DNA from: Desulfatiglandales bacterium
GTDB taxonomy: Bacteria; Desulfobacterota; DSM-4660; Desulfatiglandales; Desulfatiglandaceae
Assembly: GCA_963666345.1 (NCBI GenBank)
Contig: OY762721.1
Span: 1,504,001 to 1,568,000 of the forward strand
Length of the DNA: 64,000 nucleotides
Direction of reading: 5' to 3'
Made by a program: the position numbers and the translations under genes. The notes under the pieces were generated by a model. That model ran no database searches and was not told the origin of the DNA. It was given only the letters and a program-made list of their open reading frames with translations. Shown piece after piece: positions 35,228-62,514 of this stretch; the stretch's first letter is position 1; each line of letters opens with the position of its first letter.

Positions 35228-35524
35228 ATGCAAAAAGACAGGCCAGCCCAAAAATTTATATCCACCGGATGCCTCATCGGGCCTGAAACAGGAAAGGCCC
35301 TCGGCACCACACTGGAGTTTACACCTCCCGGCATATCTGAACCCATAGCAGGCATCTTGGACGGAAGCCCTTTCAATCCCGACCCCTGTCAGCGGACAGG
35401 TGTTAATGCCTGCGCAGTCCGCGGCCGGATTCCCCTTTTTTTAGACCTTGAAAAACATGCATATACCAACGGAATATCCGTTGTTTATCCATATGGCAAG
35501 GTTGGAAGTCGGGCAATACCTTAA
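35228..35524 (+). pseudogene. Decayed, internally deleted ADP-ribosylglycohydrolase (DraG-like) remnant, copy 1
   Basis: GCLIG...KALGTTLEF.PPG..EPI....GSPF resembles the ARH N-terminus GxxxGDALGxxxEF...GGGPF...WTDD with catalytic residues lost; homologous to 44788-45099. Confidence 0.6.
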
Positions 35525-37355: not shown

Positions 37356-37502
37356 TTGATGACGTCTTAAAAGGTAATAATTGAGACGGTAAACCAAAAA
37401 GCTCCAAATGCAAGTCTTGAGGAATGAGGAGTACTCTCAGTACGTCGCAATGACGAAAGATGAAGCGTAACGCAGCAGTTGGACTTTTTACGAAACCGTC
37501 AA
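37356..37502. mobile_element. MITE-like element (~147 bp)
   Basis: Imperfect terminal IRs TTGATGACGTCTTAAAAGG / CTTTTTACGAAACCGTCAA; non-coding; intergenic. Confidence 0.55.
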
Positions 37503-37533
37503 CTTTCACAATTAACAGAAATGGAAAAAAACC

Positions 37534-38749: not shown

Positions 38750-38800
38750 GGTCACCCATGTTTATCAGGTAAAACCGATAAATTCATGGGTGTCCCCCTT
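38750..38800 (+). repeat. Cassette-boundary repeat R1, forming an inverted doublet hairpin
   Basis: AAAACCGATAAATTCATGGGTGTCCCCCT preceded by a degenerate reverse copy GGTCACCCATGTTTATCAGGT. Confidence 0.85.
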
Positions 38801-38819
38801 ATCGCTGCGTCAAAACAGC

Positions 38820-38855
38820 TTGCATCCCCTGTTTTTAATGACTATAATTATAGTC
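38820..38855 (+). promoter_or_regulatory. sigma70 promoter with palindromic operator for the phd-relE pair
   Basis: TTGCAT-17 bp-TATAAT; perfect palindrome GACTATAATTATAGTC 38840-38855 covers the -10. Confidence 0.75.
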
Positions 38856-38881
38856 TAAATGGGATGTAAAGGAGACCAGCA

Positions 38882-39154
38882 ATGACCAGAACCATTTCAC
38901 TTGCCGAGGCAAAAAAAAGCCTTTCCGCCATTGTAAAGGATGTTGATGAAAAATACGACCGCTTCGCCATTACAAGAAACGGCGTGAGTAAGGCCGTGCT
39001 CCTTAGCAGCGATGAATTCGAGGGGCTCCTTGAAACCATCGAAATTCTTTCAGCCGCGGAGGAGCGTGACGCCATAGCAAGGGCAAAGAAACAGGTGAGA
39101 TCGGGTGAAACCGTTTCTATCAGGAAAATCAGGGAAAGGTACGATATCGATTAA
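38882..39154 (+). CDS. Phd/YefM antitoxin
   Basis: ISLAEAK..LS.IV, ITRNG..KAVLLS..EFEGL.ETIEIL. Confidence 0.92.
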   Translation: MTRTISLAEAKKSLSAIVKDVDEKYDRFAITRNGVSKAVLLSSDEFEGLLETIEILSAAEERDAIARAKKQVRSGETVSIRKIRERYDID

Positions 39155-39417
39155 TGCCCCACTCTATTGAATTCTCAAAAGAGGCCGCACGGGACATCGA
39201 TGTCCTTTACTCTTCAGATAAAAAGCTCTTTACCAGAATAATCAACAAGATTGAATCTCTTGAGGAAACTCCCTTTGAAGGCAAACCCCTTGTGGGCAAT
39301 CACAGGGGTGAGTTCTCCTTGAGGGTGGGAAATTACCGCATCGTCTATGAAACCGATTCCCCGGCAAAAACCGTCTACATACTCACCATCAAACACCGAA
39401 GGCATGTGTACAAGTAG
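39154..39417 (+). CDS. RelE/ParE-family toxin
   Basis: GKPL.G...G.FSLRVGNYRIVY, I.HRR.VY; TAATG overlap. Confidence 0.92.
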   Translation: MPHSIEFSKEAARDIDVLYSSDKKLFTRIINKIESLEETPFEGKPLVGNHRGEFSLRVGNYRIVYETDSPAKTVYILTIKHRRHVYK

Positions 39418-39476
39418 CCGATATTTTTAATGGGTATCCGCTTGATACGGTCGTTATCATAAAAAAATGAGTGGAA

Positions 39477-39498
39477 ATACCACGCAATTGCGTGGTAT
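39477..39498. promoter_or_regulatory. Perfect 22-bp palindrome, probable operator
   Basis: ATACCACGCAATTGCGTGGTAT just upstream of HTH-MNT gene. Confidence 0.65.
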
Positions 39499-39509
39499 AA
39501 ACACGCAAT

Positions 39510-40097
39510 ATGGATACATTGAATACGATATTATCTTCCCGCACCCGCGCTGAAATCTTCAGGCTCCTTTTCGGCACCGTCGAGGAGGAGCTTCACCTTC
39601 GTGAGATCCAGCGCCGTTCCGGACTTAACGACAGCACAATCCGTCAGGAATTGCGTAAACTGCTTCAACTCGATCTGGTAAAGGGGCGAAAGGACAGTAA
39701 CAGGATCTATTACAGTGGCAACAGATCACACCCTCTCCATCCTGAAATCCGGAATATGGTTTTAAAGACTGTAGGCCTTGCTCAAGTCCTGAGAGACGCC
39801 CTTCAGGACGAACGGATTGAAGTGGCCTTTGTCTTCGGCTCTGTTGCAGAGGGCAAGGCAACCGCCGACAGTGATATTGACCTCTTTGTAATTGGAGATC
39901 TGGGCCTGCGCTCACTTTCAGAACTGCTCTCAGACACCTCCGAAAAAATCGGAAGAGAAATCAACCCTCACGTGATGAATGTAAGTTCCTTTCTTAAAAG
40001 GGTCGAAACCGGTGAACATTTTGTTTCCAGCGTAATCGAATCGCAGAAATTGTTCATAATCGGGACTGAAAATGACCTTAAAGCAATGGGCCGATAA
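39510..40097 (+). CDS. Winged-HTH plus minimal nucleotidyltransferase (MNT) antitoxin-like protein
   Basis: N-terminal HTH LHLREIQRRSG; FVFGSVAEG...DSDIDL. Confidence 0.88.
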   Translation: MDTLNTILSSRTRAEIFRLLFGTVEEELHLREIQRRSGLNDSTIRQELRKLLQLDLVKGRKDSNRIYYSGNRSHPLHPEIRNMVLKTVGLAQVLRDALQDERIEVAFVFGSVAEGKATADSDIDLFVIGDLGLRSLSELLSDTSEKIGREINPHVMNVSSFLKRVETGEHFVSSVIESQKLFIIGTENDLKAMGR

Positions 40098-40511
40098 CGG
40101 CTGGCTGACTTCTCATAAATCAAGTGCACAGGAAATAGGCAATCTCCTGGCTATTGTCGAGCGCGACATTAAAGACGCTTCTAAAAGAACCATTTCCGCG
40201 GATTGGCGCTTTGGGATCGCCTATAATGCCGCTTTAAAACTTTGCACCATCCTTCTTTATGCCGAAGGCTACAGGGCGGAAAGAAACCTTCAGCATTACC
40301 GTACTATTCAGGCCCTGCCACTCATCTTGGGACAAGAGAAAAAAAGGATGCAAATTACCTGGACACATGCCGCTCAAAAAGGAACATCGTCGAATACGAT
40401 TACGTTGGAGGGGTCACGGAAGAAGATGCGGAAGAACTCATTGATTTTGCAGAAGGCCTGAAAGAGGAAGTTGAAGTATGGCTTGAAAAAAGGCATCCGC
40501 TACTTGCATAG
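40072..40511 (+). pseudogene. HEPN-like toxin partner, frameshifted at A7 run 40339-40345
   Basis: N-half (WRFGIAYNAAL..., 40072 frame) and C-half (DANYLDTCRSKRNIVEYD..., 40242 frame) join if one A is added. Confidence 0.75.
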
Positions 40512-40570
40512 GGAAAACTCCCGCTGAACCTCCAATCGTCACCTCACCGACAAATTACGCTTAAATTCAG

Positions 40571-40601
40571 GAGAAACTGATAATTTCATGGGCGTCCCCC
40601 T
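40571..40601 (+). repeat. Cassette-boundary repeat R2 (subtype A)
   Basis: GAGAAACTGATAATTTCATGGGCGTCCCCCT. Confidence 0.95.
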
Positions 40602-40655
40602 TATTGCTTTAAGGGGAGAAACCGGCAGATCAATAATAGCTGCCCTATCATTTTT

Positions 40656-40671
40656 ACATCAATATTGATGT
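40656..40671. promoter_or_regulatory. Palindromic operator of HigBA-like pair
   Basis: ACATCAATATTGATGT, perfect 16-bp palindrome 9 nt before ATG. Confidence 0.65.
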
Positions 40672-40680
40672 TGACCAGCC

Positions 40681-41034
40681 ATGGAATTTACTATAGAATT
40701 TTATGAAACCAGCTCGGGTAGATCCCCTGTGCGTGAGTTTCTTGATAAGATCAAGGGATCCAGTCCCGATGATTTTGCGATGGTCCTGGCAGGGCTGGCA
40801 AAGCTCCGAAAAAGTAATTATCACAAGGCACCTCTATCAAAACCGATAGGGAACGATCTTTTCGAATTGCGACATGTCGGCAGGTTGAATACCAGAATCT
40901 TATACTTTTTTATGAAAGGAAGACGGATAATCCTTGTCCATGGCTTGAGGAAAAAGACAAGAGCCATCCCCGCCGGCGACCGGCAGGTTGCCATGGAGAG
41001 GAAAGAAGACTGGCTGAAGAGGAATACAACATGA
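40681..41034 (+). CDS. RelE/HigB-like (Gp49-type) toxin
   Basis: IEFYET.SG.SPV.EFL, LFELR, RILYFF, LVHG..KKT..IP. Confidence 0.9.
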   Translation: MEFTIEFYETSSGRSPVREFLDKIKGSSPDDFAMVLAGLAKLRKSNYHKAPLSKPIGNDLFELRHVGRLNTRILYFFMKGRRIILVHGLRKKTRAIPAGDRQVAMERKEDWLKRNTT

Positions 41035-41378
41035 AGGGAAAAACAGACTTTGACCGCTACCTTGAAGATCAATTGAAAAATCCCGAATTTGCCGCACGAT
41101 TCAAAAAGGCCGGCCAGGCCTGGGAGATTGCCATGCAGCTTGCCGCACTGCGTAAGGAATCAGGCTTATCTCAAAAGGAACTCGCAAATCGTCTCGGGAC
41201 ATCTCAGCAACAGATCAGCCGTCTTGAATCACCTGGCTATGAGGGGCATTCCCTGAGCATGATACGTCGATTTGCCGATGAACTGGGAGCTGCAGTCCAG
41301 GTAAGGATTGTAAAAAAGAGGCATACTGAAAAACTCGCCATCGCGGAAAAAAAGGGAGAATACCTGAACAAAACCTGA
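41031..41378 (+). CDS. XRE-HTH antitoxin (HigA-like)
   Basis: LRKESGLSQKELA.RLGTSQQQISRLE. Confidence 0.9.
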   Translation: MKGKTDFDRYLEDQLKNPEFAARFKKAGQAWEIAMQLAALRKESGLSQKELANRLGTSQQQISRLESPGYEGHSLSMIRRFADELGAAVQVRIVKKRHTEKLAIAEKKGEYLNKT

Positions 41379-41620
41379 TTTCCGGATGATGCCTTCGGCC
41401 CTGCATGTCGCAGGGCCGAAATATCCTGTCAATCCTGTTAATCAAGCGAAGCGGGAGGTTGATAACTCCTTTTTCTTCCTCGAAATACACCGACTTTTTT
41501 GCAATTACTCTGCAAAATATCCGCATCCGCCTTGCAAAAAAGGCCGTTAACTTTACATAAAGTCATTTGAAATTCAAGCGCTACACTGAGCATAAACATC
41601 TGATGTGAACTAAATATCAG

Positions 41621-41651
41621 GAGAAAAGCATAAAATCATGGGCGTCCCCCT
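41621..41651 (+). repeat. Cassette-boundary repeat R3 (subtype B)
   Basis: GAGAAAAGCATAAAATCATGGGCGTCCCCCT. Confidence 0.95.
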
Positions 41652-41892
41652 TATCTTTTTATGGTACAATAAATGTCCGATTATCATCCGGCATTTTGCG
41701 GAAATCATCCTATTTATTGCCATCCCAGCCGGTGCATAGACTCACTCAAGGGCCAGGCCAATTTTCAAAGAAATCTGCCCGAATCAGGCAGGGATCAGGC
41801 AACCTGGTTGAAATCGGTCATAAATTGTGACCGGTTCCAATCAGCAACATATGAGGCCACCATACAAAACCATCAGGATCAGGAAGTATAAA

Positions 41893-42417
41893 ATGCCCGG
41901 TCTTTTGCCTATTGAAAGAATCATCGAAAGGATTCATCTCATAAGAGGTATAAAGGTTATGATAGACAAGGATTTGGCACAGCTCTATGGTGTGGAAACA
42001 AAAGTCCTGAAGCAGTCTGTAAGAAGGAATATAAGACGGTTTCCCTCAGATTTCATGTTTGAACTGACAACACAGGAATATCAGTTTTTAAGGTCACAAA
42101 ATGTGACCTTAAAGAGAGGGCAGCACTCAAAGTACCCACCCTTTGCCTTTACAGAACAGGGAGTAGCAATGCTTTCATCAGTTCTTAACAGCGAGCGCGC
42201 AATAAATGCAAACATCCAGATCATGAGGGCATTTACACAGCTACGCCAGGTTTTGGCAGGACATGAGGACTTGAAAAGGAAGATAGAAGATCTTGAAAAA
42301 AAGTATGACCCCCAGTTCAGCGTAGTATTTGACGCAATCAAGGCCTTGATGGAAGAAGATCAAAAACCCCGAAGAAAAATCGGATTTGTGATAAAGGATA
42401 AAAAAGAGACTCACTGA
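41893..42417 (+). CDS. ORF6N-domain DNA-binding protein
   Basis: IRG.KVMID.DLA.LYGVETK.L.Q.V.RN..RFP.DFMFEL, PFAFTEQGVAMLSSVLNS, RRKIGF. Confidence 0.92.
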   Translation: MPGLLPIERIIERIHLIRGIKVMIDKDLAQLYGVETKVLKQSVRRNIRRFPSDFMFELTTQEYQFLRSQNVTLKRGQHSKYPPFAFTEQGVAMLSSVLNSERAINANIQIMRAFTQLRQVLAGHEDLKRKIEDLEKKYDPQFSVVFDAIKALMEEDQKPRRKIGFVIKDKKETH

Positions 42418-42443
42418 AAGATATGTGGTTTGTAACATAAGGG

Positions 42444-42474
42444 GAAAAACGCATAAAATCATGGGCGTCCCCCT
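42444..42474 (+). repeat. Cassette-boundary repeat R4 (subtype B)
   Basis: GAAAAACGCATAAAATCATGGGCGTCCCCCT; 35 bp identical to R5 including trailing GTCAT. Confidence 0.95.
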
Positions 42475-42903
42475 GTCATAGGGCTATCTGATGCCCTTAA
42501 GGATGAAGAGAGGCTCGCAAATTCTTTTGCAGACAGCATCACCCCTCTTCTTATTCCAGAGATACAAATTCATGCCTGGCGCGACAGGGAACTGATCGTC
42601 GTTACGGTACCTCATACTGCAGGGCCTTTTTACATTAAGGCAGAGGGTCTTGAAAACGGTGTTTACATAAGGTTAGGTTCTACGAACCGTAGGGCAGGCT
42701 CTGAAATGATCGCTGAACTCCAGCGACTTGCACGCAACTCTTTCTTTGATGAAAAGCCTTTCCCGGAAATCAACTCGGAAGATATTGACTTCCGAGCAGC
42801 TTCCGAGTTCTTTTCTGCTGTAGCCCGTAAATTGACATCTCCAAGAATGGAATCTCTTGGTCTAGTTGTCGATCACGGTGGAAACAGCAGCAGGGCTTTT
42901 TAA
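42475..42903 (+). pseudogene. Internal fragment of AlbA_2/Schlafen-domain ATP-binding protein
   Basis: Open frame VIGLSDALKDEERLANSFADSITP...GVYIRLGSTNRRA...FDEKP begins at the R4 end; lacks N- and C-termini. Confidence 0.75.
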
Positions 42904-42929
42904 AGAAAATTAAAGATGACATATTGGAG

Positions 42930-42960
42930 AAAAAACGCATAAAATCATGGGCGTCCCCCT
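42930..42960 (+). repeat. Cassette-boundary repeat R5 (subtype B)
   Basis: AAAAAACGCATAAAATCATGGGCGTCCCCCT. Confidence 0.95.
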
Positions 42961-43033
42961 GTCATGGACAGGCAACCGATGCCTCAAATTTCGATCTCAT
43001 AACCTGGCTTGTCACCAAATCAGGAAAAGGCTG

Positions 43034-44500
43034 ATGGCTGATCTCAAAGCGCTTATAAAACAGGGAGAAGGCGTTTCTATTGAATTCAAGGAATGTAGAC
43101 GAGCCCTTAACCGGGATGTTTATGAGACCGTCTGCGCGTTTCTCAACCGTCACGGTGGAAACCTGCTCCTCGGGGTCAGTGATGCCGGTGAAGTTACCGG
43201 TGTTGATCCGGACTGCATTGCTAACATTAAAAAAGACTTTGTAACGACCATTAACAATCTGCAGAAACTCCATCCTCCTGCCTATTTGTCAGTCGATGAG
43301 GTTGATATAGAAGGCAAGACGGTCTTGCGCATTTATGTGCCGGAGAGTTCACAGGTCCACCGCTGCAACGGGCGAATTTACGACCGCAATGAAGACGGTG
43401 ACCTCGATATTACGGATCATACCCGGCAGGTAGCCGACCTGTATCATCGCAAACAATCCAGCTACTCGGAGAACAAGATCTATCCGCATGCAGGTCTTGA
43501 AGATCTGCGGTCCGACCTCATTGATAAATGCCGCAGACTTGCAGGTGTCTGGCGAGAGGGGCATCCCTGGCTTGATATGGACGATATGGAGCTGTTGAAA
43601 AGCGCGCAACTCCACCAGACGGACCCTGAAACAGGCAAAAGAGGCATCACCTTGGCCGGCATACTACTGCTCGGTAACGACCAGCTCATTTTAACGGCGG
43701 TACCGCATCACCGGACCGATTTGATCCTGCGCAAGGTCAACCTGGATCGCTATGATGACCGGGATTTGGTGTGCACCAACTTGCTCGAAAGTTATGACCG
43801 TATTATTGCCTTTGTGCAGAAGCATTTGCCGGACCCCTTTTTTCTGGAGGGAATGGAACGTATCAGCATTCGCGATACCATCTTTCGTGAGGTAGCCTCC
43901 AACATCTTGATTCACCGGGAATTCACCAACGCTTTCCCTGCCAAGTTGATTATCGAGCGTGGTCAGGTACGCACCGAAAACAGCAACAAGCCTAATGGGT
44001 TCGGCGTCCTCGACCCGGCCACTTTCACTCCATTCCCCAAGAATCCTGTGATCGGCGCATTTTTCCGGGAAATTCACCGCGCTGATGAACTAGGCTCCGG
44101 AATGCGTAAGATGATGCGCTATGGCAGGGCCTATGGCGGTGCCGATCCGGAAATGATCGAAGGCGATGTGTTTAGAATCGTTGCCAAGACTCCGGAATTC
44201 AGCGCAACAGGTGAAGGGGAAGTCACCCCCCATGTCACCCCCCATGTCACCCCCCATGTCACCCCCCATGTAAAAAAGCTGCTTAAGATTTGTGAGGGTG
44301 AGAAAGGAAGGGCGGAACTACAGGAGTTGCTAAATATAAAAGACAGGAAGTATTTCCGGGAATCTTATTTAACCCCTTCATTTGAAATCGGATTTATTGA
44401 GATGACTATTCCGGATAAACCTCAAAGTCGACTACAGAAATACCGGCTGACGGCAAAAGGAAAGGCATGGTTGGATAAGAATAGGGATAAGGGAAAATAA
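43034..44500 (+). CDS. AlbA_2 (Schlafen-like) + RecG-C-like ATPase domain + C-terminal wHTH protein
   Basis: GEG.SIEFK, VCAFLN..GG.LLLGV.D, REV..N.LIHR, KNP.I, LGSG, TIPDKP.SRLQKYRLT. Confidence 0.88.
   Translation: MADLKALIKQGEGVSIEFKECRRALNRDVYETVCAFLNRHGGNLLLGVSDAGEVTGVDPDCIANIKKDFVTTINNLQKLHPPAYLSVDEVDIEGKTVLRIYVPESSQVHRCNGRIYDRNEDGDLDITDHTRQVADLYHRKQSSYSENKIYPHAGLEDLRSDLIDKCRRLAGVWREGHPWLDMDDMELLKSAQLHQTDPETGKRGITLAGILLLGNDQLILTAVPHHRTDLILRKVNLDRYDDRDLVCTNLLESYDRIIAFVQKHLPDPFFLEGMERISIRDTIFREVASNILIHREFTNAFPAKLIIERGQVRTENSNKPNGFGVLDPATFTPFPKNPVIGAFFREIHRADELGSGMRKMMRYGRAYGGADPEMIEGDVFRIVAKTPEFSATGEGEVTPHVTPHVTPHVTPHVKKLLKICEGEKGRAELQELLNIKDRKYFRESYLTPSFEIGFIEMTIPDKPQSRLQKYRLTAKGKAWLDKNRDKGK
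44222..44269 (+). repeat. 12-bp tandem repeat x4 in coding linker (VTPH)4
   Basis: (GTCACCCCCCAT)4. Confidence 0.95.
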
Positions 44501-44652
44501 GTTGATAAGATTGGATCATCTCCAAAAGAGTTGATCTAAATGAAGGATTCTTCGCTCCGCTCAGTCCCACTGCTTCGCAGCGGGTTCCCAGTTTCGAAGG
44601 GTCAAGGGTTCGCGGGTTCGAGTGAAACGCTTAAAAATTACAAAGAGTTAAA

Positions 44653-44780
44653 CATCCAGGAATTGGTCATTTCCGGATATTGCTTTCAGCCATCAGCAAA
44701 TGACAAATAAGTTGATATTCCGGATCTGTTACTGACAGCTGAGCGCTGAGAGCTGATAGCTGATAGCTTGAGCCTATAAT
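44653..44780. mobile_element. Partial copy of GCTGATA-repeat MITE-like element (see 60206-60363)
   Basis: CATCCAG.AAT..TCATTTC.G.AT.TTGC.TTCAGCC.TCAGC...GAGCGCTGAGAGCTGAT.GCTGATAGC shared. Confidence 0.6.
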
Positions 44781-44922
44781 TCATTTGACTTTCCCGCTTC
44801 ATTCTTATTAGCCTGTATCGGTTTGTACTAAAAATATTTTTGAAAATTCTTGTTTTTTGCACGATTTTGTATTTAATCTGTATTTCCCTGCGAACATTTT
44901 TTCAGACTCACGCTGACGCAAA

Positions 44923-45150
44923 ATGCAAAAAAACAGGCCTGCCGCAAAAGATAGATTCACCGGATGCCTCATCGGGCTTGCAACAGCAAACGCCCCCGGC
45001 ACAACACTAGAGTTTAACCCTCCCCCTACATTTGAACCGATAAGCGATATCACCGGCGCCTTTTACGGATATGAGGGTATCCCAAACGAATGGATTTAAA
45101 AAATCGCCATAAGTGATATTATAGAGGAAACAGCAGCAGGACTTTTTAAA
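44923..45150 (+). pseudogene. Internally deleted ADP-ribosylglycohydrolase remnant, copy 2
   Basis: MQKNRPAAKDRFTGCLIGLATANAPGTTLEFNPPPTFEPISDI fused in frame to C-terminal-like GAFYGYEGIPNEWI* (stop 45097-45099). Confidence 0.65.
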
Positions 45151-45244
45151 GGCGAGGGGAAATGATCTATCGGGAGATAAATGGATAATCTCACGGGTGT
45201 CCATATAACCATTAACACTTCAACCAAAATATAGGCAAAATTTT

Positions 45245-45589
45245 ATGAAAGAATTGATTCAAAAGTTGAGAAATTTCGCAAAAGAAAGAGAATGGGAACA
45301 ATTCCATTCGCCCAAAAACCTTGCCATGGCACTGAGCGTTGAAGTTGCTGAGATTGTCGAAATATTTCAATGGTTGACACAGGAGGAAAGCAAAAACTTA
45401 AGGCCAGATGTATTGCAAAAGGTCAAAGAAGAAATTGGGGATGTAACGATATTCCTTACGAATTTAGCAGACAAACTTGGGATTGATCTTTTAGCGGCTG
45501 CAATGGAAAAGATTGAAGTCAACGAGCGGAAATATCCCGTGGATAAAGCAAAGGGAAGTGCCAAAAAATACACGGAATTTGAAAAATGA
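45245..45589 (+). CDS. MazG-like nucleotide pyrophosphohydrolase
   Basis: FAKEREWEQFHSPKNLAMALSVEVAE..E.FQW, EEIGDV, N.RKYP. Confidence 0.92.
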   Translation: MKELIQKLRNFAKEREWEQFHSPKNLAMALSVEVAEIVEIFQWLTQEESKNLRPDVLQKVKEEIGDVTIFLTNLADKLGIDLLAAAMEKIEVNERKYPVDKAKGSAKKYTEFEK

Positions 45590-47451
45590 TCGTATATTCT
45601 TCGACCAAATCAGAGTTCAGACAGGATGTCCGTGATAACCGAATTGACGGATTAATACTAGAAGCCTATCAACGCAACCTTGGCCACTCGACCAGTAAGG
45701 CAGAAATAGCATCATGGAAGAACTCCATGATGTATATGAACAATATACTGGAAGATGATGATATACCTGATAATACAGGCGTGGCCATCGAATATAAGGT
45801 CCCTCAAACCTCAAAGCGTATCGATTTTATTCTTACCGGTACTAATAACCAAAATAGAAGTACAGCAATTATTGTGGAGCTCAAACAATGGTCAGATGCA
45901 AAACTCACAGATAAAGATGGTGTCGTAAAAACAACCCTAGGTGGGGTACAGCGAGAAGTTAATCATCCGTCATACCAAGCCTGGACATATGCAGCCTTAC
46001 TTGAAGATTTTAATAAAACAGTTCAGGAGCAGAATATAGCGCTAAAACCATGTGCATACCTACATAATATGAAAAAAGGGGATGTAATCAAAAATCCTCG
46101 ATATAGGAGCTATCTTCAAAAAGCACCATCATTTATAAGAACAGATGCTAAAAGGCTATCCGACTTTATCAAACAATTCATACGCTATGGGGATTCAGGC
46201 AAAATCATATTTGAGATTGATAATGGCAAGATCAGACCATCCAAAAATCTGGCAGACAAACTTCTATCGATGCTTCAAGGCAATGAAGAATTTATTATGA
46301 TTGACGACCAAAAACTCGTCTTTGAAGCAGCTTTAAATCTGGTACAAATATCAACTGTTAAAGATAAGCATGTACTCATAGTGGAAGGTGGTCCAGGTAC
46401 AGGGAAGTCTGTTATTGCCATTAACCTGCTTGTACAGTTAACAAATGACAGACTCGTTTCACAATATGTGACAAAGAATGCTGCGCCACGTGATGTCTAT
46501 GAAAGTGTGCTGACAGGTTCGTTCACTAAAAGTCATATTTCTAATTTGTTTATTGGATCAGGTGGCTATATAAATTGTGAGCCGAATATCTTTGATGCAT
46601 TAATCGTTGATGAAGCCCACCGTCTCAATGAAAAATCAGGGATGTTCCAAAACAAGGGTGAAAATCAAATAAAGGAGATCATTAAGGCATCTAAGGCCAG
46701 CATTTTTTTTATCGATGAAGATCAACGTGTTACTTGGAAGGATATAGGCGAAATAAGGGAAATAGAAAAATGGGCCAATAAACTCGGTGCAACCGTTCAT
46801 AGAATGGAATTGCAATCTCAATTTAGATGTAATGGTTCAGACGGTTATCTGGCTTGGATCGATAATGTTCTACAAATAAAAGAAACCGCAAATGATACCT
46901 TAGAAGGCATTGATTTCGACTTTCGTGTTTTTGATTCACCGAATAAGCTAAGAGAGGCTATTCTAGATAAGAATAAAATCAATAATAAAGCAAGGTTAGT
47001 AGCAGGCTATTGTTGGAATTGGATAAGCAAAAAGCCAGAAAATAAGGCACAAAATGACATAGTCATCGAGGAGGATAACTTCGCGATGAGATGGAATCTT
47101 GCGTCAGATGGTAATTTATGGATTCGCAAACCAGAGGCAGTTAATGAGATCGGATGCATTCATACATGTCAAGGGTTGGAACTTGACTACATCGGCGTGA
47201 TCCTTGGCCCCGATATTGTTATAAGAAATGGTGAATTGTTAGTTCAACCAGATCAAAGGGCAAAGACAGATCAATCCCTAAAAGGTTATAAGAAGGCATT
47301 AAACGAAAATCCAGGAGCTGCCATTGCTAAAGCTGAAGCTATTGTCAAGAATACATACAGAACACTGATGTCACGAGGGCAAAAGGGTTGTTATATCTAC
47401 AGTACAGACCCAGAAACAAACGCATATTTTTCAGAACTAGCAAAATCAGTT
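45586..47451 (+). pseudogene. DUF2075 (Schlafen group 3-like helicase) protein with N-terminal nuclease-like domain; 5' part, interrupted by IS21
   Basis: RIDF..IIVELKQW, GGPGTGKS, IVDEAHRL, QFRC, IHTCQGLELDY, NTYRTLMSRG; ATGA overlap with MazG. Confidence 0.85.
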
Positions 47452-47554
47452 TGTCAATAGGCGTTGAAAATTGACCCATCATCGGCGTCCAAAATTGACC
47501 CACCCCTGAGAAAAAAATATGGTTAAATAGTTGAGTAGTTGATCCCTTCTTTAT

Positions 47555-48286
47555 CTATGAAGCTGCGTGTTTCATTCTCCAGCTTTCGTTACCTGTTTCT
47601 ATAATTTCACAATGATGAGTCAATCGATCAAGCATGGCCGTAGTCATCTTTTTATCTCCAAAGACTTGGGGCCATTCACCGAAGGTCAAGTTGGTGGTAA
47701 TCACTATGGATGTCTGTTCGTAGAGTTTTGATATAAGATGAAAGAGCAGTTGACTGCCGTTTTTGGAAAAAGGCAGATAACCCAGTTCATCGAGGACCAC
47801 AAGATCAAATCGAAGTAGTCTTGCTGTGATTTTGCCGGCCAATCCAATCATTTTTTCCTGCTCAAGCTCATTTGCCAGATCCACCAGGTTATAAAACTTG
47901 CACTTCCTGCCATTCCTTATGGCCTGGGCCGCTATAGTTATGGCTAAATGGGTTTTGCCCGTACCGGTGCCACCTACAAAAATCAGGTTGATATGTTCGG
48001 CTATAAAATCACCCTGATAAATAGACCTAATCTGGGCTTCATCAACACAGGCCCCGTTAAAATCAAAGCCATCGATATCTTTAAGGACAGGAAACCTGGC
48101 CTGTCCCATACGATATCGGATACTCCTTATATATCTTTCGGCAGCTTCAGCCTTGAGCAGTTCCAGGATTACCTTTTCAGGAGTTGAATGGGTCTTGCGT
48201 CCATTGGAGACAACTTCATCATAAATGGACTGCATACCCCGCAACTTTAGTTTTTCCATATGGTCCATGATATCATTGCGCAGCAT
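47555..48286 (-). CDS. istB: IS21 helper ATPase IstB
   Basis: [38 protein letters not shown]. Confidence 0.96.
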
Positions 48287-49790: not shown

Positions 49791-49911
49791 CCCTTTCCGC
49801 CTCCTTCTACCATAGTCACAGCAGAATAGAAGGCTTTCAGGGGTGGGTCAATTTTGGACGCCGATTCGCCCTATAGGTGGGTCATTTTTGCATGCCGATT
49901 CACAATCAGTT

Positions 49912-51643: not shown

Positions 51644-51665
51644 TATTTTTAGAGAGGACAATGAT

Positions 51666-52580: not shown

Positions 52581-52594
52581 TGAGGTGAAAGAGA

Positions 52595-55897: not shown

Positions 55898-56059
55898 AGA
55901 AGGTAATTTATCTAGCCAGTAAAAATGGGACTGAGAGGGGTCATATCTCTTTTTGGCTCCTGCGGTCCCTCAGGTTTTTGGGACGTAGGGACATTCGTCT
56001 ATAAGAAAGTAATTCAACATACAATGAAGGGAAAAGGGTCACACAACACTCTTGACAGC

Positions 56060-56245
56060 ATGACAGACATTGACCAAAGAGTTCGAATTGCGGCTTTTAA
56101 GTGGCTGGATGAGCAGGTCGGCATCCATGGTGACGTATTGCCTCGTTCGCTCCTTGCCCAGGGCTTTATATTCAATGGACAGCGGGTCCCCTTGGTTGCG
56201 CCTACAGGAATATTCAAACCCAGGGTTCTTCCACAAATGGATTAG
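56060..56245 (+). pseudogene. N-terminal stub of a probable HNH-type endonuclease, truncated at repeat R6
   Basis: MTDIDQRVRIAAFKWL...GDVLPR..L..GF.F.GQRVPL....GIFKP recalled as an HNH N-terminus; stop TAG overlaps R6. Confidence 0.6.
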
Positions 56246-56274
56246 GGGGACGCCCATGAAATTATCAGTTTCTC
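56244..56274 (-). repeat. Cassette-boundary repeat R6 (subtype A)
   Basis: AGGGGGACGCCCATGAAATTATCAGTTTCTC, exact reverse complement of R2. Confidence 0.95.
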
Positions 56275-56378
56275 ATTCCATATTTATTTAAACAGTCTCG
56301 GATAAAGGTAGGGAGCAGGGATTATATCTCTATTTGGCTCTTGCAGAACTACGGATTGCGGGGAACGGCTTTTAAATA

Positions 56379-56672
56379 TCACTTTTCAGGGGCAGCCGAC
56401 TCTCTTTCCTTTTCTATTTTTTCGTGCAGCCAGAGAGCCATAAGCTGTGTGTGGGGGATTCCCTTTTTACGGGCAAGACGTTTTATAATTGAGATATCAA
56501 ACGGATCCATGCGAATGGAAACCGGCTGACGGGGAGGCCGTTTGGCCTTGAAAAGTTCAGCCCCGCTGAGCTGTTTTTCGACATCCTCGACACTTTCTCC
56601 GGCAACAGCCCTATCCCACTGTTCCGCCTCTTCACGGATCTTGTTTCTTATTTCTTTTGGAAGTCTGCTCAT
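56379..56672 (-). CDS. CopG/BrnA-like RHH antitoxin
   Basis: EEAEQWD, PVSIRM...I..IKRLARKKGIP.TQL..LWL.EKI. Confidence 0.8.
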   Translation of the reverse strand: MSRLPKEIRNKIREEAEQWDRAVAGESVEDVEKQLSGAELFKAKRPPRQPVSIRMDPFDISIIKRLARKKGIPHTQLMALWLHEKIEKERESAAPEK

Positions 56673-56989
56673 TTTCCAATCCTTTTAAAATAAACTCTTT
56701 TAGTGGAATCCGACATGTGAAAGGCCGTTACACATCGCCACAAACCATACTGGGGATACGGGGCCACAATCACTTCAATGCATAACCCGGAGGAATCCGT
56801 GCCCCATAAGCGGTATCTAAATTCGATGGATTTCCCGGATTTTTTTCTGTTTTTGACAGCAAAGGTAGGAAACGGCCCTTCGCTGTAATAGACCTCTTCC
56901 ACCTGTTCGGGATGTATCCCATGAACAGCAATGTGATTTATGTTATCCTCATCCCGGTCAGGCACAAGAGATGGATCCGGTCTGATCAT
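56669..56989 (-). CDS. BrnT-like toxin
   Basis: DEDNINHIA.HGI.PE.VEEV, RYRL.G.D.SG, RCVTAF.M; ATGA overlap with antitoxin. Confidence 0.7.
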   Translation of the reverse strand: MIRPDPSLVPDRDEDNINHIAVHGIHPEQVEEVYYSEGPFPTFAVKNRKKSGKSIEFRYRLWGTDSSGLCIEVIVAPYPQYGLWRCVTAFHMSDSTKRVYFKRIGK

Positions 56990-56996
56990 GCAAAAA

Positions 56997-57025
56997 ATAA
57001 TAACGTAATTTTTTGATTACGTCAA
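56997..57025 (-). promoter_or_regulatory. sigma70 promoter with operator for BrnT-like pair
   Basis: Minus strand TTGACG-17 bp-TATTAT containing inverted repeat ACGTAAT-N6-ATTACGT. Confidence 0.7.
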
Positions 57026-57057
57026 GCCTCCCTCTATGTAATATATACCCATCTATC

Positions 57058-57087
57058 AGGGGGACGCCCATGAAATTATCAGTTTCT
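57058..57087 (-). repeat. Cassette-boundary repeat R7 (subtype A)
   Basis: AGGGGGACGCCCATGAAATTATCAGTTTCT. Confidence 0.95.
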
Positions 57088-57170
57088 TTGAATCGCCATA
57101 CCTGAAAATCTCTGCTTGAGGCCGGATGTTTCTTGACTCAATACCATTCAATTTTATTCTATATACCCCT

Positions 57171-57842
57171 TTAAAGTCCCAAAAGTTTTTTTGACAAACT
57201 GTGCAATTCTGAATTTGCAAGCGCAACCACCTTCTTTTTTACTCTCCGGGAGTAATATTCCTGTTCTGTCTTTGTGAGGGGAAGGCCTTCAAGTTTCTTT
57301 TTAAACAGCTCCTTTTGTTTTGGAGAAAATATTTGCGAAAGGGCATACTCCAGGGATAATTCTTCATATTTTGCTGTCCTCTGTTTGTCCTTTTCTGCCT
57401 TCTTTTCAAAATAGAGTTCGAATAACCCTTTCACACGCTCTGCATTAAGCTTGATGTCGCTGAATTCCAGAGTCTGGTTATGTGCTAAACGATTCCTCAA
57501 TTTCCTGACCAGTGTCTTATCTTCATCTGTAAACTTGTTTTTCAGGCTGTTCCACCAGGGAAAGGAAAGGTGGTAAAAGGAATATAGCGATCCGGAAAAC
57601 AGTATCAAATGATGAAATCGAAGCTTCTGTTCTTTTGTAGTTAACTGCTCTTCTACCTGTCCCGGATCAAACTGATAGCTTTCAGCAGCATTTGCCAGCA
57701 ATACAGGAAAACCTTCCCATAATCTGGTATCACACTCCCTGACTACTCTTGCCAGGGTTTCCCTGGCATCAAAGTCTTCTTCCGGCTCCAGCATGGGAAA
57801 ACCCAGTTTTGATAAGCTGGTCAAAAACTTACTGTCATTCAT
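57171..57842 (-). CDS. Hypothetical partner of nucleotidyltransferase, possible C-terminal HTH
   Basis: Overlaps upstream gene; LSQIFSPKQKEL..KKL....LTKTEQEYYSR. Confidence 0.75.
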   Translation of the reverse strand: MNDSKFLTSLSKLGFPMLEPEEDFDARETLARVVRECDTRLWEGFPVLLANAAESYQFDPGQVEEQLTTKEQKLRFHHLILFSGSLYSFYHLSFPWWNSLKNKFTDEDKTLVRKLRNRLAHNQTLEFSDIKLNAERVKGLFELYFEKKAEKDKQRTAKYEELSLEYALSQIFSPKQKELFKKKLEGLPLTKTEQEYYSRRVKKKVVALANSELHSLSKKLLGL

Positions 57843-58422
57843 AAAGCCCCTCTCTTCGTAACAATTCGAGGAAGTGGTCAATGTTCGGCCTCAATCGATC
57901 TTCTCCCACATCGTAACCAACCAATTCATGAAAATGCGCGATAAGCTTTTCTATATCGATCTCCTTTTGCCGGTACTCCACTAACCTCAGACAGTCTTCG
58001 AAATCAACATTGGTTCCCCTCATCAATTTGCTGGAAATCAGGTCATAATCATTGAGGATGCCGATATAAAGATAAGAAAATTCCTTAAGTATAGAATGCC
58101 TGCCCATCTCAAGAGGGTTAACAAGCAGTTCTGTCGTGTGAATCCGATTACCCTGGAAAAGATCGAAGCGAAAATTCTCTCCGGCTCGTTGCCACCCTGA
58201 ACCTGTTATCTGCTTGTACCCCAGGTCCTTTAATTGTTTCGTCAGGTAAGCATATTCTCTAGCCATGGGAACCATAAAATCCACATCTTTGGTCGAGGGT
58301 TTGATCCCAATCAGAGTCATTGCCGTTCCACCGCAGGCAATGAGTTGTACTTTTCGCCTGAGGAAGCGATTCCAATCTTCCATGATATCAAGAAGCCGAT
58401 CTTTACCTAACCTATATTTCAC
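57835..58422 (-). CDS. DUF6036-like nucleotidyltransferase
   Basis: IACGGTAM....KPSTKDVDF, DL..SKL.R....DFED. Confidence 0.8.
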   Translation of the reverse strand: MKYRLGKDRLLDIMEDWNRFLRRKVQLIACGGTAMTLIGIKPSTKDVDFMVPMAREYAYLTKQLKDLGYKQITGSGWQRAGENFRFDLFQGNRIHTTELLVNPLEMGRHSILKEFSYLYIGILNDYDLISSKLMRGTNVDFEDCLRLVEYRQKEIDIEKLIAHFHELVGYDVGEDRLRPNIDHFLELLRREGLYE

Positions 58423-58721
58423 TTGTATTAAAACCTACAAATTGTTGTCATTATATAATCATTTTATTGTACTATATGATACAAATTAAACTAATTTTTG
58501 TCAACAAATACACTCAGATATTTTTAGCAGCAATATTTCATGAAATTATTCCGGATTCCTTGATGGCGAAAACCTGTAATTTTAGATTTTTAACTAATTT
58601 GTAATATTATAATCAGTTTATTGTATATTTTAATTCAATTATTTGTACGATATAATACAATTTAATATAAGAACAAGCCGTGTAACCAAAGAAGAGGGTC
58701 ACATCTTGATTTGCCAGGATT

Positions 58722-58752
58722 AGAGGGACGCCCATGAAATTATCAGTTTCTC
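58722..58752 (-). repeat. Cassette-boundary repeat R8 (subtype A)
   Basis: AGAGGGACGCCCATGAAATTATCAGTTTCTC. Confidence 0.95.
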
Positions 58753-59021
58753 ACGGGGTTTTCGCTGATTGGAAATGACTTTCGAGAAATCACATGGGCG
58801 GAACAATACAGCCAAAGGGAACTAAAGGAAGTCTCAAATGGATTCAGCATGTGGTTAATGACTTTCCATACGTGTTGAGCAGGCCCTTAATTGATGCAAT
58901 TGTATGATATGAGGGACGTTATCGGCTATCGTGACAAACTCCCGATGAAAAAATGATAAAATTGTTATCACGGTTCACTCTGAGGTGTATAATAGAGTTT
59001 TTATAAAGGGAGGATAATAAA

Positions 59022-59312
59022 ATGGCACAAGATCCGGGAATAGGTAAAAAAGTTGTGGCCACAATTACAGGTGTAAATGGTGAATGCAGTGCCGGGCATA
59101 AGGCAGGCGATACCTTTACGATCAGCTGCCATAATCCCGCCGGGCTGTGTGGTTTCTTTTATCACGATATTTTCCCCAGCCTTTCCACGTTCCAGTTCGG
59201 GGGCTCTCTGCCGTGGTGGAAAGGCGATACGATTGAGCTCCAATGTCCCGATAATAACATTGTCACGTTAAAATTGGAGAGATTCGAGAGGAAGTGGTGT
59301 AACAAAGTTTAG
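59022..59312 (+). CDS. TIGR04076-like small Cys-rich protein
   Basis: C.AGHK.GD.F, GLC..FYH.IFP, CPD; GGGAGG RBS. Confidence 0.75.
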   Translation: MAQDPGIGKKVVATITGVNGECSAGHKAGDTFTISCHNPAGLCGFFYHDIFPSLSTFQFGGSLPWWKGDTIELQCPDNNIVTLKLERFERKWCNKV

Positions 59313-59493
59313 GCCCGCTTATTTTGAGGATAAGGACGCTGAAAACTGAAAGAGGAGGTGCTTATTGAGAGATGCCTGAACCGTAGAGGGGGACGTAGGG
59401 TCCGAAACAACCTATGAAAATTCATTACGAATTGCCCTCTTTCCTCTCCGTCTCAGACATGACGGGCCAAAGGCGTTTACAGAAAAATCAGCT

Positions 59494-60135
59494 ATGGGAA
59501 AAGAATATGACATCGTAGCAAAGTTTTATGACCCTTTGCTTTATTTTTTCATGAAGCCCGTAAGAAAGGCGTTACTGAATGAACTCCTGACGCACAAGGA
59601 TAAAGCCATTCTGGATATCTGCTGCGGCACAGGCAATCAAGTAAAGCTTCTGGCAGAACACGGGTTCACTAATCTTCATTGTCTGGATTCATCCGCTTCT
59701 ATGCTGGAAATAGCAAAAAAGTCCGATTATCCTATCCACATCTATAATCAAGACGCTACAAAAACAAATTTTGATAATGAATCTTTTGATGTCGCGATTA
59801 TCAGTTTCGCGCTCCATGAAAAAGACAGAACCACCCAGGAAAACTTCATCAAAGAAACCCATAGACTGTTAAAGAATGACGGCATTTTACTGGTTGTTGA
59901 TTTTGCCTTTGATGAGTTAACTGCTATATTCAGTAAAATCGGAATAATTCTCGTGGAAAGACTGGCAGGCGGGGAGCACTATTCGTATTTCAAGAGCTAC
60001 ATCCAAAATAATGGCCTGTCAAGCTTGATTAAAGAAGATAAATTTATACTCATAAAAAATTTTCGAAAGCTTTTCGCTGGAGTCATCGTATCATTATATC
60101 GGAAAGTTCAGGACATAGATGCATTCTGTTTGTAA
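59494..60135 (+). CDS. Class I SAM-dependent methyltransferase (UbiE-like)
   Basis: ILDICCGTG, LDSS..ML, SFD...ISFALHE. Confidence 0.88.
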   Translation: MGKEYDIVAKFYDPLLYFFMKPVRKALLNELLTHKDKAILDICCGTGNQVKLLAEHGFTNLHCLDSSASMLEIAKKSDYPIHIYNQDATKTNFDNESFDVAIISFALHEKDRTTQENFIKETHRLLKNDGILLVVDFAFDELTAIFSKIGIILVERLAGGEHYSYFKSYIQNNGLSSLIKEDKFILIKNFRKLFAGVIVSLYRKVQDIDAFCL

Positions 60136-60205
60136 ATGGGGGCATCCGTAAATAAGTAAACAACTCAAAATAGCGCGCATCCATAACCATTTACTTGGGC
60201 TTAGG

Positions 60206-60363
60206 TAGTTTCCATCCAGAAATGAATCATTTCTGAATGTTGCCTTCAGCCGTCAGCTATCAGCAGGTAGCCAACAAATTTATATCTCAACTGTTTTACT
60301 GAGCGCTGAGAGCTGATTGCTGATAGCGTGAGTCCGTAAATCTTGATTTATGGATGAGCACTA
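60206..60363. mobile_element. MITE-like element with internal GCTGA(T/G)A heptamer repeats
   Basis: Terminal IRs TAGTTTCCATCCAGAAAT / ATTTATGGATGAGCACTA (14/18); related partial copies at 44653-44780 and 24341-24380. Confidence 0.6.
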
Positions 60364-60422
60364 GGTAGTAGGACCCTCCAGAGGCAGGGAAATAGTTTAT
60401 CAATAATTGAAAGGAGGAAAAA

Positions 60423-60749
60423 ATGGAGAAAAAATGGACCTACAAAAATTATGAGATTGAAGAAGGATTAAGACCCGGGAGTTCAAAGTTTCAATATTTT
60501 TTCGTTGTTTCCGAAAAGGGTGTGAAAAAGAGTAATTACTGTGTCTGGTTAAAGGATGATGCTTTATCCCGTTTTGATCAATCTGAAAATTTTGATACGA
60601 TTATCTCGTCTCAAAGAGAAAACTGGGTCAAATGGATTAAGGAAAAAATTGATGCGCAGGATTTTCAAAATCGCGCTTTAAAATTTGATAAGACAGGTGA
60701 AATGGAGATAAACCTGTCTGAAATGAAGGAACATATCACCATGGATTAA
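60423..60749 (+). CDS. Hypothetical protein
   Basis: Strong AGGAGG RBS, 108-aa ORF. Confidence 0.75.
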   Translation: MEKKWTYKNYEIEEGLRPGSSKFQYFFVVSEKGVKKSNYCVWLKDDALSRFDQSENFDTIISSQRENWVKWIKEKIDAQDFQNRALKFDKTGEMEINLSEMKEHITMD

Positions 60750-60853
60750 AAACCGCGGATTCGGAAAGGGGTCAGATCTACGCTTGACTGTTGCCGGCTT
60801 TTAAAAAGGTGACGCCCTCAAATAACTCAAGATAGAATGAAAGACCGCAGATT

Positions 60854-60884
60854 AGGGGGACGCCCATGATTTTATGCTTTTCTC
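60854..60884 (-). repeat. Cassette-boundary repeat R9 (subtype B)
   Basis: AGGGGGACGCCCATGATTTTATGCTTTTCTC, exact reverse complement of R3. Confidence 0.95.
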
Positions 60885-60933
60885 TTATAGGAAAGAAGCA
60901 GCCATATAAGATTCAGCCAACCATGTCTCATAC

Positions 60934-61545
60934 CTATGGATGGGGTATTATCATTTCTTTTGTGTCTTCGACAAGTTGTATCAGGCAGCCTACTGCCTCT
61001 TTAATCGCCTCTTTCGGGTCAACTCCCAATGATTCTGCATTGAGCGTGTTATTTAAATAGTATTTGACCAGATAATTCTTGTCGTCTTCATCAGGAAAGA
61101 CATGATACCTTTCAAGTAACTCCGACTTCCTTTTCTCAGTAACGGCACGCAGTCTGTCTTCCCATTTCTGTATCTTCTGTTTCATGTTCTTGGGCGTTTT
61201 ATCAGGCAGGTTGTAATAGAGGTAGGCCCAAAGACCGTCTTCCCTATTTTCCGCCGTAAGGGAGTCCCAGTTGAAATATTCAATCCCGTAAAAAAGACCC
61301 ATCTCATGCTTTCCGTCATAATATTGCTTAGGGGTCAAGGTAACTTCATCTTCATTTTCTTCATATTCCCATTCTATCTCACCATGAAAAGGCATCTCAT
61401 TTATTCTTCGCCCCAGTTCCCTGAAAACTTCACTTCTCAGCCAGTCAGGAACCCGCTTTTCCGCTTGAGAACAACTTTCCTTCAAGGCTTCCACGGCCTT
61501 GAGGTTTTTTACAATAAAGTCACATTCCTGGTTGACAATAATCAT
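60934..61545 (-). CDS. Hypothetical acidic protein
   Basis: AAGGAG RBS; co-oriented downstream of PD-(D/E)XK gene. Confidence 0.75.
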   Translation of the reverse strand: MIIVNQECDFIVKNLKAVEALKESCSQAEKRVPDWLRSEVFRELGRRINEMPFHGEIEWEYEENEDEVTLTPKQYYDGKHEMGLFYGIEYFNWDSLTAENREDGLWAYLYYNLPDKTPKNMKQKIQKWEDRLRAVTEKRKSELLERYHVFPDEDDKNYLVKYYLNNTLNAESLGVDPKEAIKEAVGCLIQLVEDTKEMIIPHP

Positions 61546-61565
61546 ATCTATTCTCCTTACCTGTT

Positions 61566-62372
61566 TTAGAAAAGCCAGCTTGAGCCGAAAAAGTGCCTCA
61601 AGGCACCGATCCCGTTACTGTCAATTTTTGTAGACTCCGCGATACTGCCCAGTTCCTCCCAGATTATTTGATTCAGTTTATCTCTCGATAGATTAATAAA
61701 TTTACCGCTTTTTGACTTTGTGCCGTATGGCGTGACAAAATAGGCGGCAATGTTCTTTTTGGATACCCCCATGGTTTCGGCAAATCCCTGTAAATCTTCC
61801 CATTCCCTTACCGTTTGAGGCCTGCCGGTCTTATGAGATGTTTCAGAGCCTGATTTTACCTTCAGCTCTATATCAATTATCACGTTTTCATCTGAAAAGT
61901 CCCTTGTAGATATCCTTATGTCTATACGGGAATTATCACCACTCTGCTCCCGCCTGACTGAGATATCTTCTTCCTTTTTTCTCTCTACAATCAATGCTAT
62001 TTTTTCCTTTCCGGTTTCTTTCAACAGCCTGACAATAATAGATTTTCCAAATGGAGACTTCTTAGGGTTTAACATATCGGCCGTGATGTCGCTGATTGCA
62101 TCTTCCCCTAATTTCAATCTCAATTCCCGGAAAAGATCATACTGCACGGCCTTTAAAAAGAAAGGCTTTTTCTTATAGGCTTCAACCAGTCCCCTTGTCA
62201 GGGAAAAACGTTCTTCTTTTCTTTGAAATGACTTTTCAAACAGGCCTGAGTCCTTGTAATTTTCAATCAAGATTTTAATGGTTTCATATCCTGAGGCAGG
62301 AGAAAACCGGCGTGTATAATCTTTCATCAGATTTTTTACGGCGGTAAATTTGAGCGGATCAGATTTTTTCAT
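61566..62372 (-). CDS. PD-(D/E)XK nuclease-family protein
   Basis: VRRE....SRIDIRI...IIDIELKV...E....Q, YFVTP.G. Confidence 0.75.
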   Translation of the reverse strand: MKKSDPLKFTAVKNLMKDYTRRFSPASGYETIKILIENYKDSGLFEKSFQRKEERFSLTRGLVEAYKKKPFFLKAVQYDLFRELRLKLGEDAISDITADMLNPKKSPFGKSIIVRLLKETGKEKIALIVERKKEEDISVRREQSGDNSRIDIRISTRDFSDENVIIDIELKVKSGSETSHKTGRPQTVREWEDLQGFAETMGVSKKNIAAYFVTPYGTKSKSGKFINLSRDKLNQIIWEELGSIAESTKIDSNGIGALRHFFGSSWLF

Positions 62373-62484
62373 ATTCTTCCCGATTATTTTTATTATGATC
62401 CATTACCAGAAAAAGACTCAGAGATAAACCCCGCTCATATCTTGACACCAGGTTTTCCCGCCGCAAATTTCTGAAACACCCTTT

Positions 62485-62514
62485 AGGGGGACGCCCATGA
62501 TTTTACGTGTTTCT
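62485..62514 (-). repeat. Cassette-boundary repeat R10 (subtype B variant)
   Basis: AGGGGGACGCCCATGATTTTACGTGTTTCT. Confidence 0.93.

Follow-up and report, generated by a model that had tools for sequence, protein, structure and literature searches.

An internal fragment of an AlbA_2/Schlafen-type gene lies directly outside a 30-bp repeat (R4) in the window, the 64,000-nt stretch of Desulfatiglandales DNA analysed here, and is probably the scar of a one-ended joining by a Y1 (HUH) transposase of the TIRYT type, whose activity is predicted from sequence. Judged by enzyme, domain layout and TIRs, the repeat is the TIR of a TIRtron/TIRYT-type element. The element class is known; the rule by which its junctions fall is new and testable. 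According to the rule to be tested, the cut lies 5-11 nt outside the CCCC of the TIR and the word in between is kept, with no target consensus and no target duplication. Positions marked + are counted outward from this CCCC.

The frame from 42475 translates as VIGLSDALKDEERLANSFADSITP...GVYIRLGSTNRRA...FDEKP... and was described in the initial annotation as the middle of an AlbA_2-domain protein without an N-terminus. The fragment corresponds to residues 52-187 in a protein family about 451 aa long. Over these residues it is 84.6% identical to P0002 (451 aa, AlbA_2 + HATPase_c_4), and it is the sole match to P0002 at E ≤ 1e-5 in the 4.16-Mb genome (G000). Similarity was expected to begin within a few nucleotides of 42475. 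With a blastp query that read through the repeat into the fragment, 113 of 120 alignments to longer homologues begin exactly at the Val codon at 42475, and each of the 19 codons ahead of it on the repeat side matches at most 4% of the homologues. The frame was said to end shortly before the next repeat copy, R5; its stop codon was found at 42901-42903, and R5 starts at 42931. AlbA_2 homology itself stops at 42877-42882 in 102 of the 120 alignments, 49 nt short of R5. From 42880 on, the sequence belongs to the 3' tail of an ADP-ribosylglycohydrolase-like remnant (weak Pfam support, E 0.004) that occurs again at 45126 and at 266 kb in G000, and gene fragment and tail meet at a GGA overlap without a TIR. 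The remnant at 45 kb shows 71% likeness to the tail repeat over 77 nt. No full-length AlbA parent was found upstream, elsewhere in the genome or among the fetched loci. The fragment is a pseudogene piece and shows no sign of function. R4 (42445-42479) and R5 (42931-42965) are identical over exactly 35 bp, made up of the 30 bp that close with CCCCCT and the five letters GTCAT, as had been reported; the initial observation is confirmed, and its interpretation is partly supported.

Seventeen copies of the repeat with at most 6 mismatches to a 28-nt consensus are present in the single-contig genome of 4.16 Mb, against none in a reversed-sequence control. Five lie on the plus strand of the window (38799-42960), five on the minus strand (56244-62485) and seven outside the window. 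An intact element of 1.09 kb has outward-facing TIRs at G000:2026867 and 2027957, with 30 identical bp at each end, and R4 has one mismatch to the 28-nt consensus derived from these TIRs. The Y1 gene between them (G000:2026896-2027900, minus strand) encodes 334 aa. The protein carries a Y1_Tnp domain (PF01797; 40 bits, cut-off 23), an H-F-H motif at aa 60-62 and, at aa 255-308, a match to Bac_DnaA_C (E 2.3e-6) that at 28 bits is below the curated 31.5; its catalytic residue is presumably the Tyr in VRYIHLNP. The outward TIRs around this intact Y1-HUH gene with a DnaA-C-like domain are what identifies the repeat as a TIR of the TIRtron/TIRYT class. The motif GGGGWSAS is exact in one of the 17 genomic copies (R1, GGGGACAC), and most others read GGGGACGC, one letter off. 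Other genomes and metagenomes supplied 293 distinct TIR copies; 75 of these have a piece of the Y1 gene within 200 nt on their inner side, and 6 on their outer side. The TIR core was found in at least 138 stretches of GTDB genomes, 117 of metagenomes and 1 viral contig; its distribution is patchy, with matches in 5 of 209 genomes from the class and in 5 of 24 from the genus to which G500 belongs. Other long Y1 genes in the genome (G000:C1:3692600-3693700, 1930200-1931250 and 1343700-1344300) have different flanking repeats, for example of the GGGTCGGACC and ACCGATTTCAGGTC types, and are likely to represent further TIRtron families. Toxin-antitoxin and nuclease genes predominate around the repeats (Table 1); the partner gene at 40072 has no Pfam match.

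Table 1. Position of the repeat copies and neighbouring features in the window.
Feature	Position	Strand	Remark
R1, TIR copy	38770..38799	+	outer word TATCG
Genes between R1 and R3: Phd/YefM + ParE, HTH-nucleotidyltransferase + partner, Gp49 + HTH	38882..41378	+	Pfam
R2, TIR copy	40572..40601	+	outer word TATTG
R3, TIR copy	41622..41651	+	outer word TATCT
ORF6N-domain gene	41893..42417	+	inner flank of R4
R4, solo 30-bp copy assigned as TIR of a TIRtron (TIRYT)	42445..42474	+	outer edge rightward
Outer word GTCAT	42475..42479	+	+3 to +7 from CCCC; common to R5
AlbA_2/Schlafen + HATPase_c_4 internal fragment	42475..42882	+	no start, no C-terminal two thirds
ADP-ribosylglycohydrolase-like 3' tail + spacer	42880..42930	+	inner flank of R5
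R5, TIR + identical GTCAT word	42931..42965	+	arrangement repeated in metagenome contig L167
Possible C-terminal tail, 23 codons	42963..43034	+	open frame, precedes second AlbA_2 gene
Complete AlbA_2 + HATPase_c_4 + Fic-like_C gene, different family	43034..44500	+	
Internally deleted ADP-ribosylglycohydrolase-like remnant, then decayed TIR-like copy (about 45174-45203)	44923..45203	+	
HNH N-terminal fragment (~317-aa gene)	56027..56239	+	cut after Q-M by minus-strand TIR
Second TIR group, five copies (ends 56244, 57058, 58722, 60854, 62485)	56244..62514	-	faces first group

A short target preference had been proposed for the nucleotides that follow CCCCCT. No consensus and no target bias were found in the 17 genomic copies, in which the first base is T in seven, A in five, G in three and C in two, and where an intact target is available the words do not match it. 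The words are CTGTA, TATCG, TATTG, TATCT, GTCAT, GTCAT, AATCC, GATAG, AATCC, AATCT, AAAGG, AATCA, TTTTG, TTTTA, CGGGT, TTTTT and TGTCC. Words sharing at least 4 nt occur in 11 of 136 pairs (shuffled mean 1.7, P 0.0004), and the words cluster by lineage; AATC is found on three TIRs of the second group and on the 3' TIR of the intact element. In a comparison of 300 copies, the outer flank was shared over 4.5 nt on average in pairs with alike inner flanks (127 pairs), against 1.1 nt in the others (44,622 pairs); pairs with the same distal flank were dropped, and the pairs are not independent of one another. An uninterrupted homologue was available for 22 of 301 outer flanks after removal of flanks having six consecutive T among their first 20 nt, of TIR-bearing subjects and of hits below 83% or 70 nt; many of these junctions come from few genomes, with Y1 genes themselves as targets. 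In 17 of them the first base shared with the intact target is at +4, 6, 7, 7, 8, 8, 8, 10, 10, 11, 11, 11, 11, 12, 12, 12 and 14, so that the new DNA starts at +6 to +12 in 15 of the 17; the remaining five of the 22 are further out, at +21 to +27. In the 17, word and intact target have 28 of 145 letters in common. This is the chance level, which indicates that the word belongs to the TIR end, and it speaks against a fixed target word of 4-5 nt at one end as in IS200/IS605. A direct repeat of at least 5 nt within 14 nt of the ends was found in 5 of 30 two-ended units (shuffled mean 3.5, max 8); target-site duplication is at chance level, and a DDE insertion sequence or MITE was rejected on this ground. 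Pairing of the outer word with a guide inside the element had been noticed on visual inspection of one genome (inner GGAGGCAG, outer CTGCCTCC) and was dropped because an identical inner flank bears different words in other groups.

The TIR end is also found re-joined to its own upstream DNA. A re-copy of the own end within 110 nt beyond the TIR occurs in 39 of 289 copies, against a control mean of 8.7 and maximum of 15. Among 26 near-tandem stutters picked by hand from the 39 (13 non-tandem cases were left out), the join lies at +5 to +11 in 24 and at +3 or nearer in one; overlaps are mostly 0-1 nt. Five of the 22 empty-site cases have the target upstream in the same locus, at -66, -74, -83, -521 and -1258. 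L027 carries a 524-bp tandem duplicate (86%) with a TIR closing each unit, and G503 carries seven same-direction TIRs over 22 kb with CAGAA after every one, together with an 885-bp duplicate (99%) that begins at +11 of one TIR. TIR dimers of 67-79 bp make up 16 of the 30 two-ended units, and one more unit measures 127 bp. In L186 (1930-3870), L212 and L208, 74-bp dimers keep their own outer word at each end; three of these dimers are about 0.8-1.1 kb apart, with genes between them.

The claim that junctions can fall inside genes was borne out by the AlbA fragment and by two further genes, HNH at 56239 and Cas_NE0113 at G000:3361276. The HNH homologue P0123 is 94.8% identical over aa 14-71 up to Q-M, followed by PLSITT. 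The junction in the window reads ATG|GATT|AGGGGG, and the word AATC (56240-56243) is foreign to the gene, which places the junction at +7. The Cas_NE0113 gene, outside the window, is cut by its TIR copy near profile position 28 of 208. In L005 a gene, presumably IS1595-like, ends 7 nt outside the TIR and is whole in L330 (96%) and L331 (88%). The remaining parts of the AlbA, HNH and NE0113 genes are absent, which fits an alternative in which the same enzyme acts in a simpler history: short solo TIR units, with a little inner flank and the word, would hop as small circles into a defence and toxin-antitoxin island that was already variable and delete locally, the AlbA piece being a deletion leftover and the arrays litter, with no duplication step. 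The existence of the dimers of 67-79 bp agrees with this, as does the retention of a short parental inner flank by single copies (the copy at 56244 retains ATGGAATGAG of the end of the Y1 gene). It is nevertheless unlikely, since among the 22 empty-site cases a clean insertion is conceivable in L375 alone, where the unit measures 74 bp, and two independent hops with an identical word 486 bp apart would be required for R4 and R5.

With regard to R4, the junction had been placed at CCCCCT itself. This is probably inexact: by the usual start of new DNA at +6 to +12 it would lie at 42478-42484. GTCAT is most likely a word carried with the TIR end, and the true join is probably at 42479|42480; position +8 from CCCC is 42480, where the identity of R4 and R5 breaks off. 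A 5-nt microhomology join at GTCAT and the AlbA codons is possible. The crossover is confined to 42474-42480 and no closer. In the reading first proposed, the cut is at CCCCCT, targets are chosen by word or microhomology and GTCAT is native AlbA sequence. The start of nearly all blastp alignments at 42475 agrees with it, as does GTC-ATA, which encodes V-I and suits the AlbA homologues (V 82%, I 23%); 15 of 310 other observed words also read [VI][VIL], which puts the chance of such a fit at about 5%. The flank of R4 changes exactly past CCCCCT in L269 and in a contig of run X6, and some stutters overlap by 1-4 nt. The reading is nonetheless distinctly improbable in view of the chance-level agreement of word and target in the 17 junctions, the single stutter join at +3 or nearer among 26, and the HNH gene, in which P-L is expected at the site of AATC.

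Strains differ at the TIR edges. L269 is 99.8% identical to 40280-42474, including the ORF6N gene and R4, and then continues with TATTGCG... and other DNA with a GIY-YIG gene; the X6 contig (depth 3.6) departs at 42474 with TATTG. L262 (99.5% identical) diverges 6 nt past the CCCCCT of the 56244 copy. A contig of run X3 joins the hydrolase tail and spacer to an R2-type TIR, and in a contig of X3 different DNA follows R3. Joints in run contigs were set at 88% likeness, may stem from other organisms and are weaker than the contig evidence. Metagenome contig L167, at 99.7% identity over 42633-44800, confirms R5 together with its flanks. Among the records and run contigs listed, none independent of this assembly bridges R4 to the AlbA fragment (L167 starts at 42633, and L192 and L193 stop at 42445), and the join was seen in this assembly alone. 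This would suit a further alternative, host recombination only (RecA or slippage at the 30-35-bp repeats, end joining) after decay of the element, or an assembly join across the cores. Exchange inside identical cores would account for the switch at R4, and the AlbA/hydrolase fusion and the fusion at 266 kb in G000 are TIR-free microhomology deletions. Such processes can neither make the first TIR|AlbA join nor yield a narrow band of 5-11 nt outside one repeat edge across many genomes, and the genome is one 4.16-Mb contig; the alternative is therefore considered very improbable.

For the one-ended joining favoured here, the following steps are proposed by analogy with related enzymes. The DnaA-C-like helix-turn-helix would bind the TIR, and the HUH domain would nick one strand at a loosely fixed distance, 5-11 nt outside its CCCC. 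The 3' end, consisting of TIR and word, would then pass to a second nick without sequence choice. A join upstream would give a tandem duplication or a circle (the stutters measure 8-94 bp and the duplications 0.5-0.9 kb), and a join downstream or at a distance would leave the flank deleted or swapped. In vitro, TnpA-REP of Escherichia coli makes nicks in single strands close to where it binds and exchanges these strands (PMC3333891). The sole intact cognate Y1 gene is 480 kb off, and the transposase must therefore act in trans. Locally, an R5-type end (TIR + GTCAT) behind the hydrolase remnant would have joined into an upstream AlbA gene near codon 53; an exchange between identical 30-bp cores would have brought the ORF6N flank ahead of R4; and a separate, TIR-independent GGA deletion would have fused AlbA codon 187 to the hydrolase tail. 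The core exchange is an extra step, needed because the flank of R4 switches at +2/+3 (L269, X6) and not at +7. This succession is the most likely history, in a tentative order. The five junctions at +21 to +27, the origin of many junctions in few genomes, the V-I codon fit, the lack of an AlbA parent and the R4-AlbA join being seen in this assembly alone stand against the one-ended model.

IS91 and ISCR elements have one fixed and one variable end, carry adjacent DNA along or cut it at arbitrary places, and make no target duplication; IS91 enzymes are of the Y2 type, with ori and ter ends and a fixed target tetranucleotide. The arbitrary cuts and the absence of target duplication resemble this one-ended transposition, and the assignment was rejected since the linked enzyme here is Y1, the two inverted ends are alike and no target consensus exists. 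The arrays also resemble integron cassette arrays in their same-direction repeats, which are spaced at 0.5-2 kb and enclose toxin-antitoxin and nuclease genes. They had been described as unlike integrons, and this was upheld by the lack of attC and of an adjacent integrase, the truncated genes, and a band of junctions in place of a fixed crossover. attC (RYYYAAC...GTTRRRY) was found within 150 nt, on either strand, of none of the 10 window copies, and the sole IntI hit above the TIGR02249 cut-off, at G000:1359039, is about 183 kb from R1. The integron integrase there (G000:C1:1359039-1359980) has one internal stop in the match and is unrelated to the TIR array. REP or classical RAYT repeats were rejected, as the repeat has no GTAG- or GTGG-foot; seven folds gave z of -1.0 to -2.0 with differing structures.

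TIRtrons/TIRYT were described by Di Nocera et al. 2013 (PMC3733652) and, in the portions of the literature covered, equal TnpA-Y1 subclass 2.1.2 of Quentin et al. 2018 (PMC6006769) and RAYT group 1 of Bertels et al. 2017 (PMC5581495); subclass 2.1 is there given as the second largest Y1 enzyme group, in 14.9% of strains (PMC6006769). As in the portions covered, the present element has a Y1 HUH gene, a C-terminal Bac_DnaA_C-like domain, long inverted repeats with a GGGGAC core, and moderately abundant single, dimeric and clustered TIR copies with patchy distribution. No enzyme biochemistry, substrate, product, cut site, target rule or junction analysis for this class was found in the openly accessible text covered. 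The carried word, upstream duplication and gene truncation are not described in the passages of the TIRtron papers compared. In the part of the TnpA-REP work considered (PMC3333891), the HUH enzyme, the distant nick of low specificity, the strand exchange and the proposed building of tandem arrays are similar; that enzyme recognises a hairpin with a GTAG foot and cleaves at C|T, whereas position and not sequence seems decisive here. All 17 genomic TIR copies end in CT; of 54 branch points further out, 3 do so. A subclass 2.1 tnpA-REP beside prochlorosin genes was proposed as a diversifier of neighbouring genes, with many truncated copies (bioRxiv 10.1101/2020.03.09.984088). No inverted repeats were found for it, and its authors later call the evidence for a causal link not strong (same preprint), whereas the junctions described here are tied to the TIR edge.

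If true, the proposed rule would represent ruler-type one-ended HUH recombination, unlike IS608, with its guide-set target, and TnpA-REP, with its C|T cut, and would account for gene fragments and strain variation in the defence islands of sediment bacteria. A wider reading, possible if doubtful, is that TIRYT ends are an HUH-driven, sequence-free counterpart of integrons, in which the helix-turn-helix anchors the enzyme on the TIR, distance sets the nick, and repeated one-ended joins duplicate, capture and reshuffle toxin-antitoxin and nuclease genes into arrays of one direction, so that each TIR edge comes to vary among strains of a species. Both converging groups of the window and the 22-kb array of G503 would then be platforms kept for turnover of anti-phage genes.

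Among the flanking sequences, no homologue of the 23-codon tail after R5 was found among the fetched loci, in the genome or in the protein database. The linker of the complete AlbA_2 gene contains a 12-bp tandem repeat (VTPH) at 44222-44269. Four decayed copies of the upstream region and start of the ADP-ribosylglycohydrolase-like gene were located, at 35091-35347 and 44784-45160 in the window and at G000:266299-266518 and 3878414-3878611; at 266 kb, microhomology links the copy to the central part of an AlbA_2 paralogue, with no TIR at the fusion. Between the converging TIR groups, 45245-55897 is a defence-type island with MazG-like + SLFN-g3 helicase, Mrr, HNH and GmrSD genes, and contig L245 has another gene in place of GmrSD. 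The two-gene insertion sequence with inverted repeats at 47456-49899 is presumably IS21-like; it is missing from a contig of run X3, in which 47443 is joined to 49904 and 8 letters fit both sides. A 77-bp start of an HNH-type gene occurs twice, at 50798-50874 (stub only) and 52951-53027. Short intergenic repeats at 44494-44770 and 37400-37510 form a separate family; in metagenome runs their contig depth is very high and loose ends are numerous.
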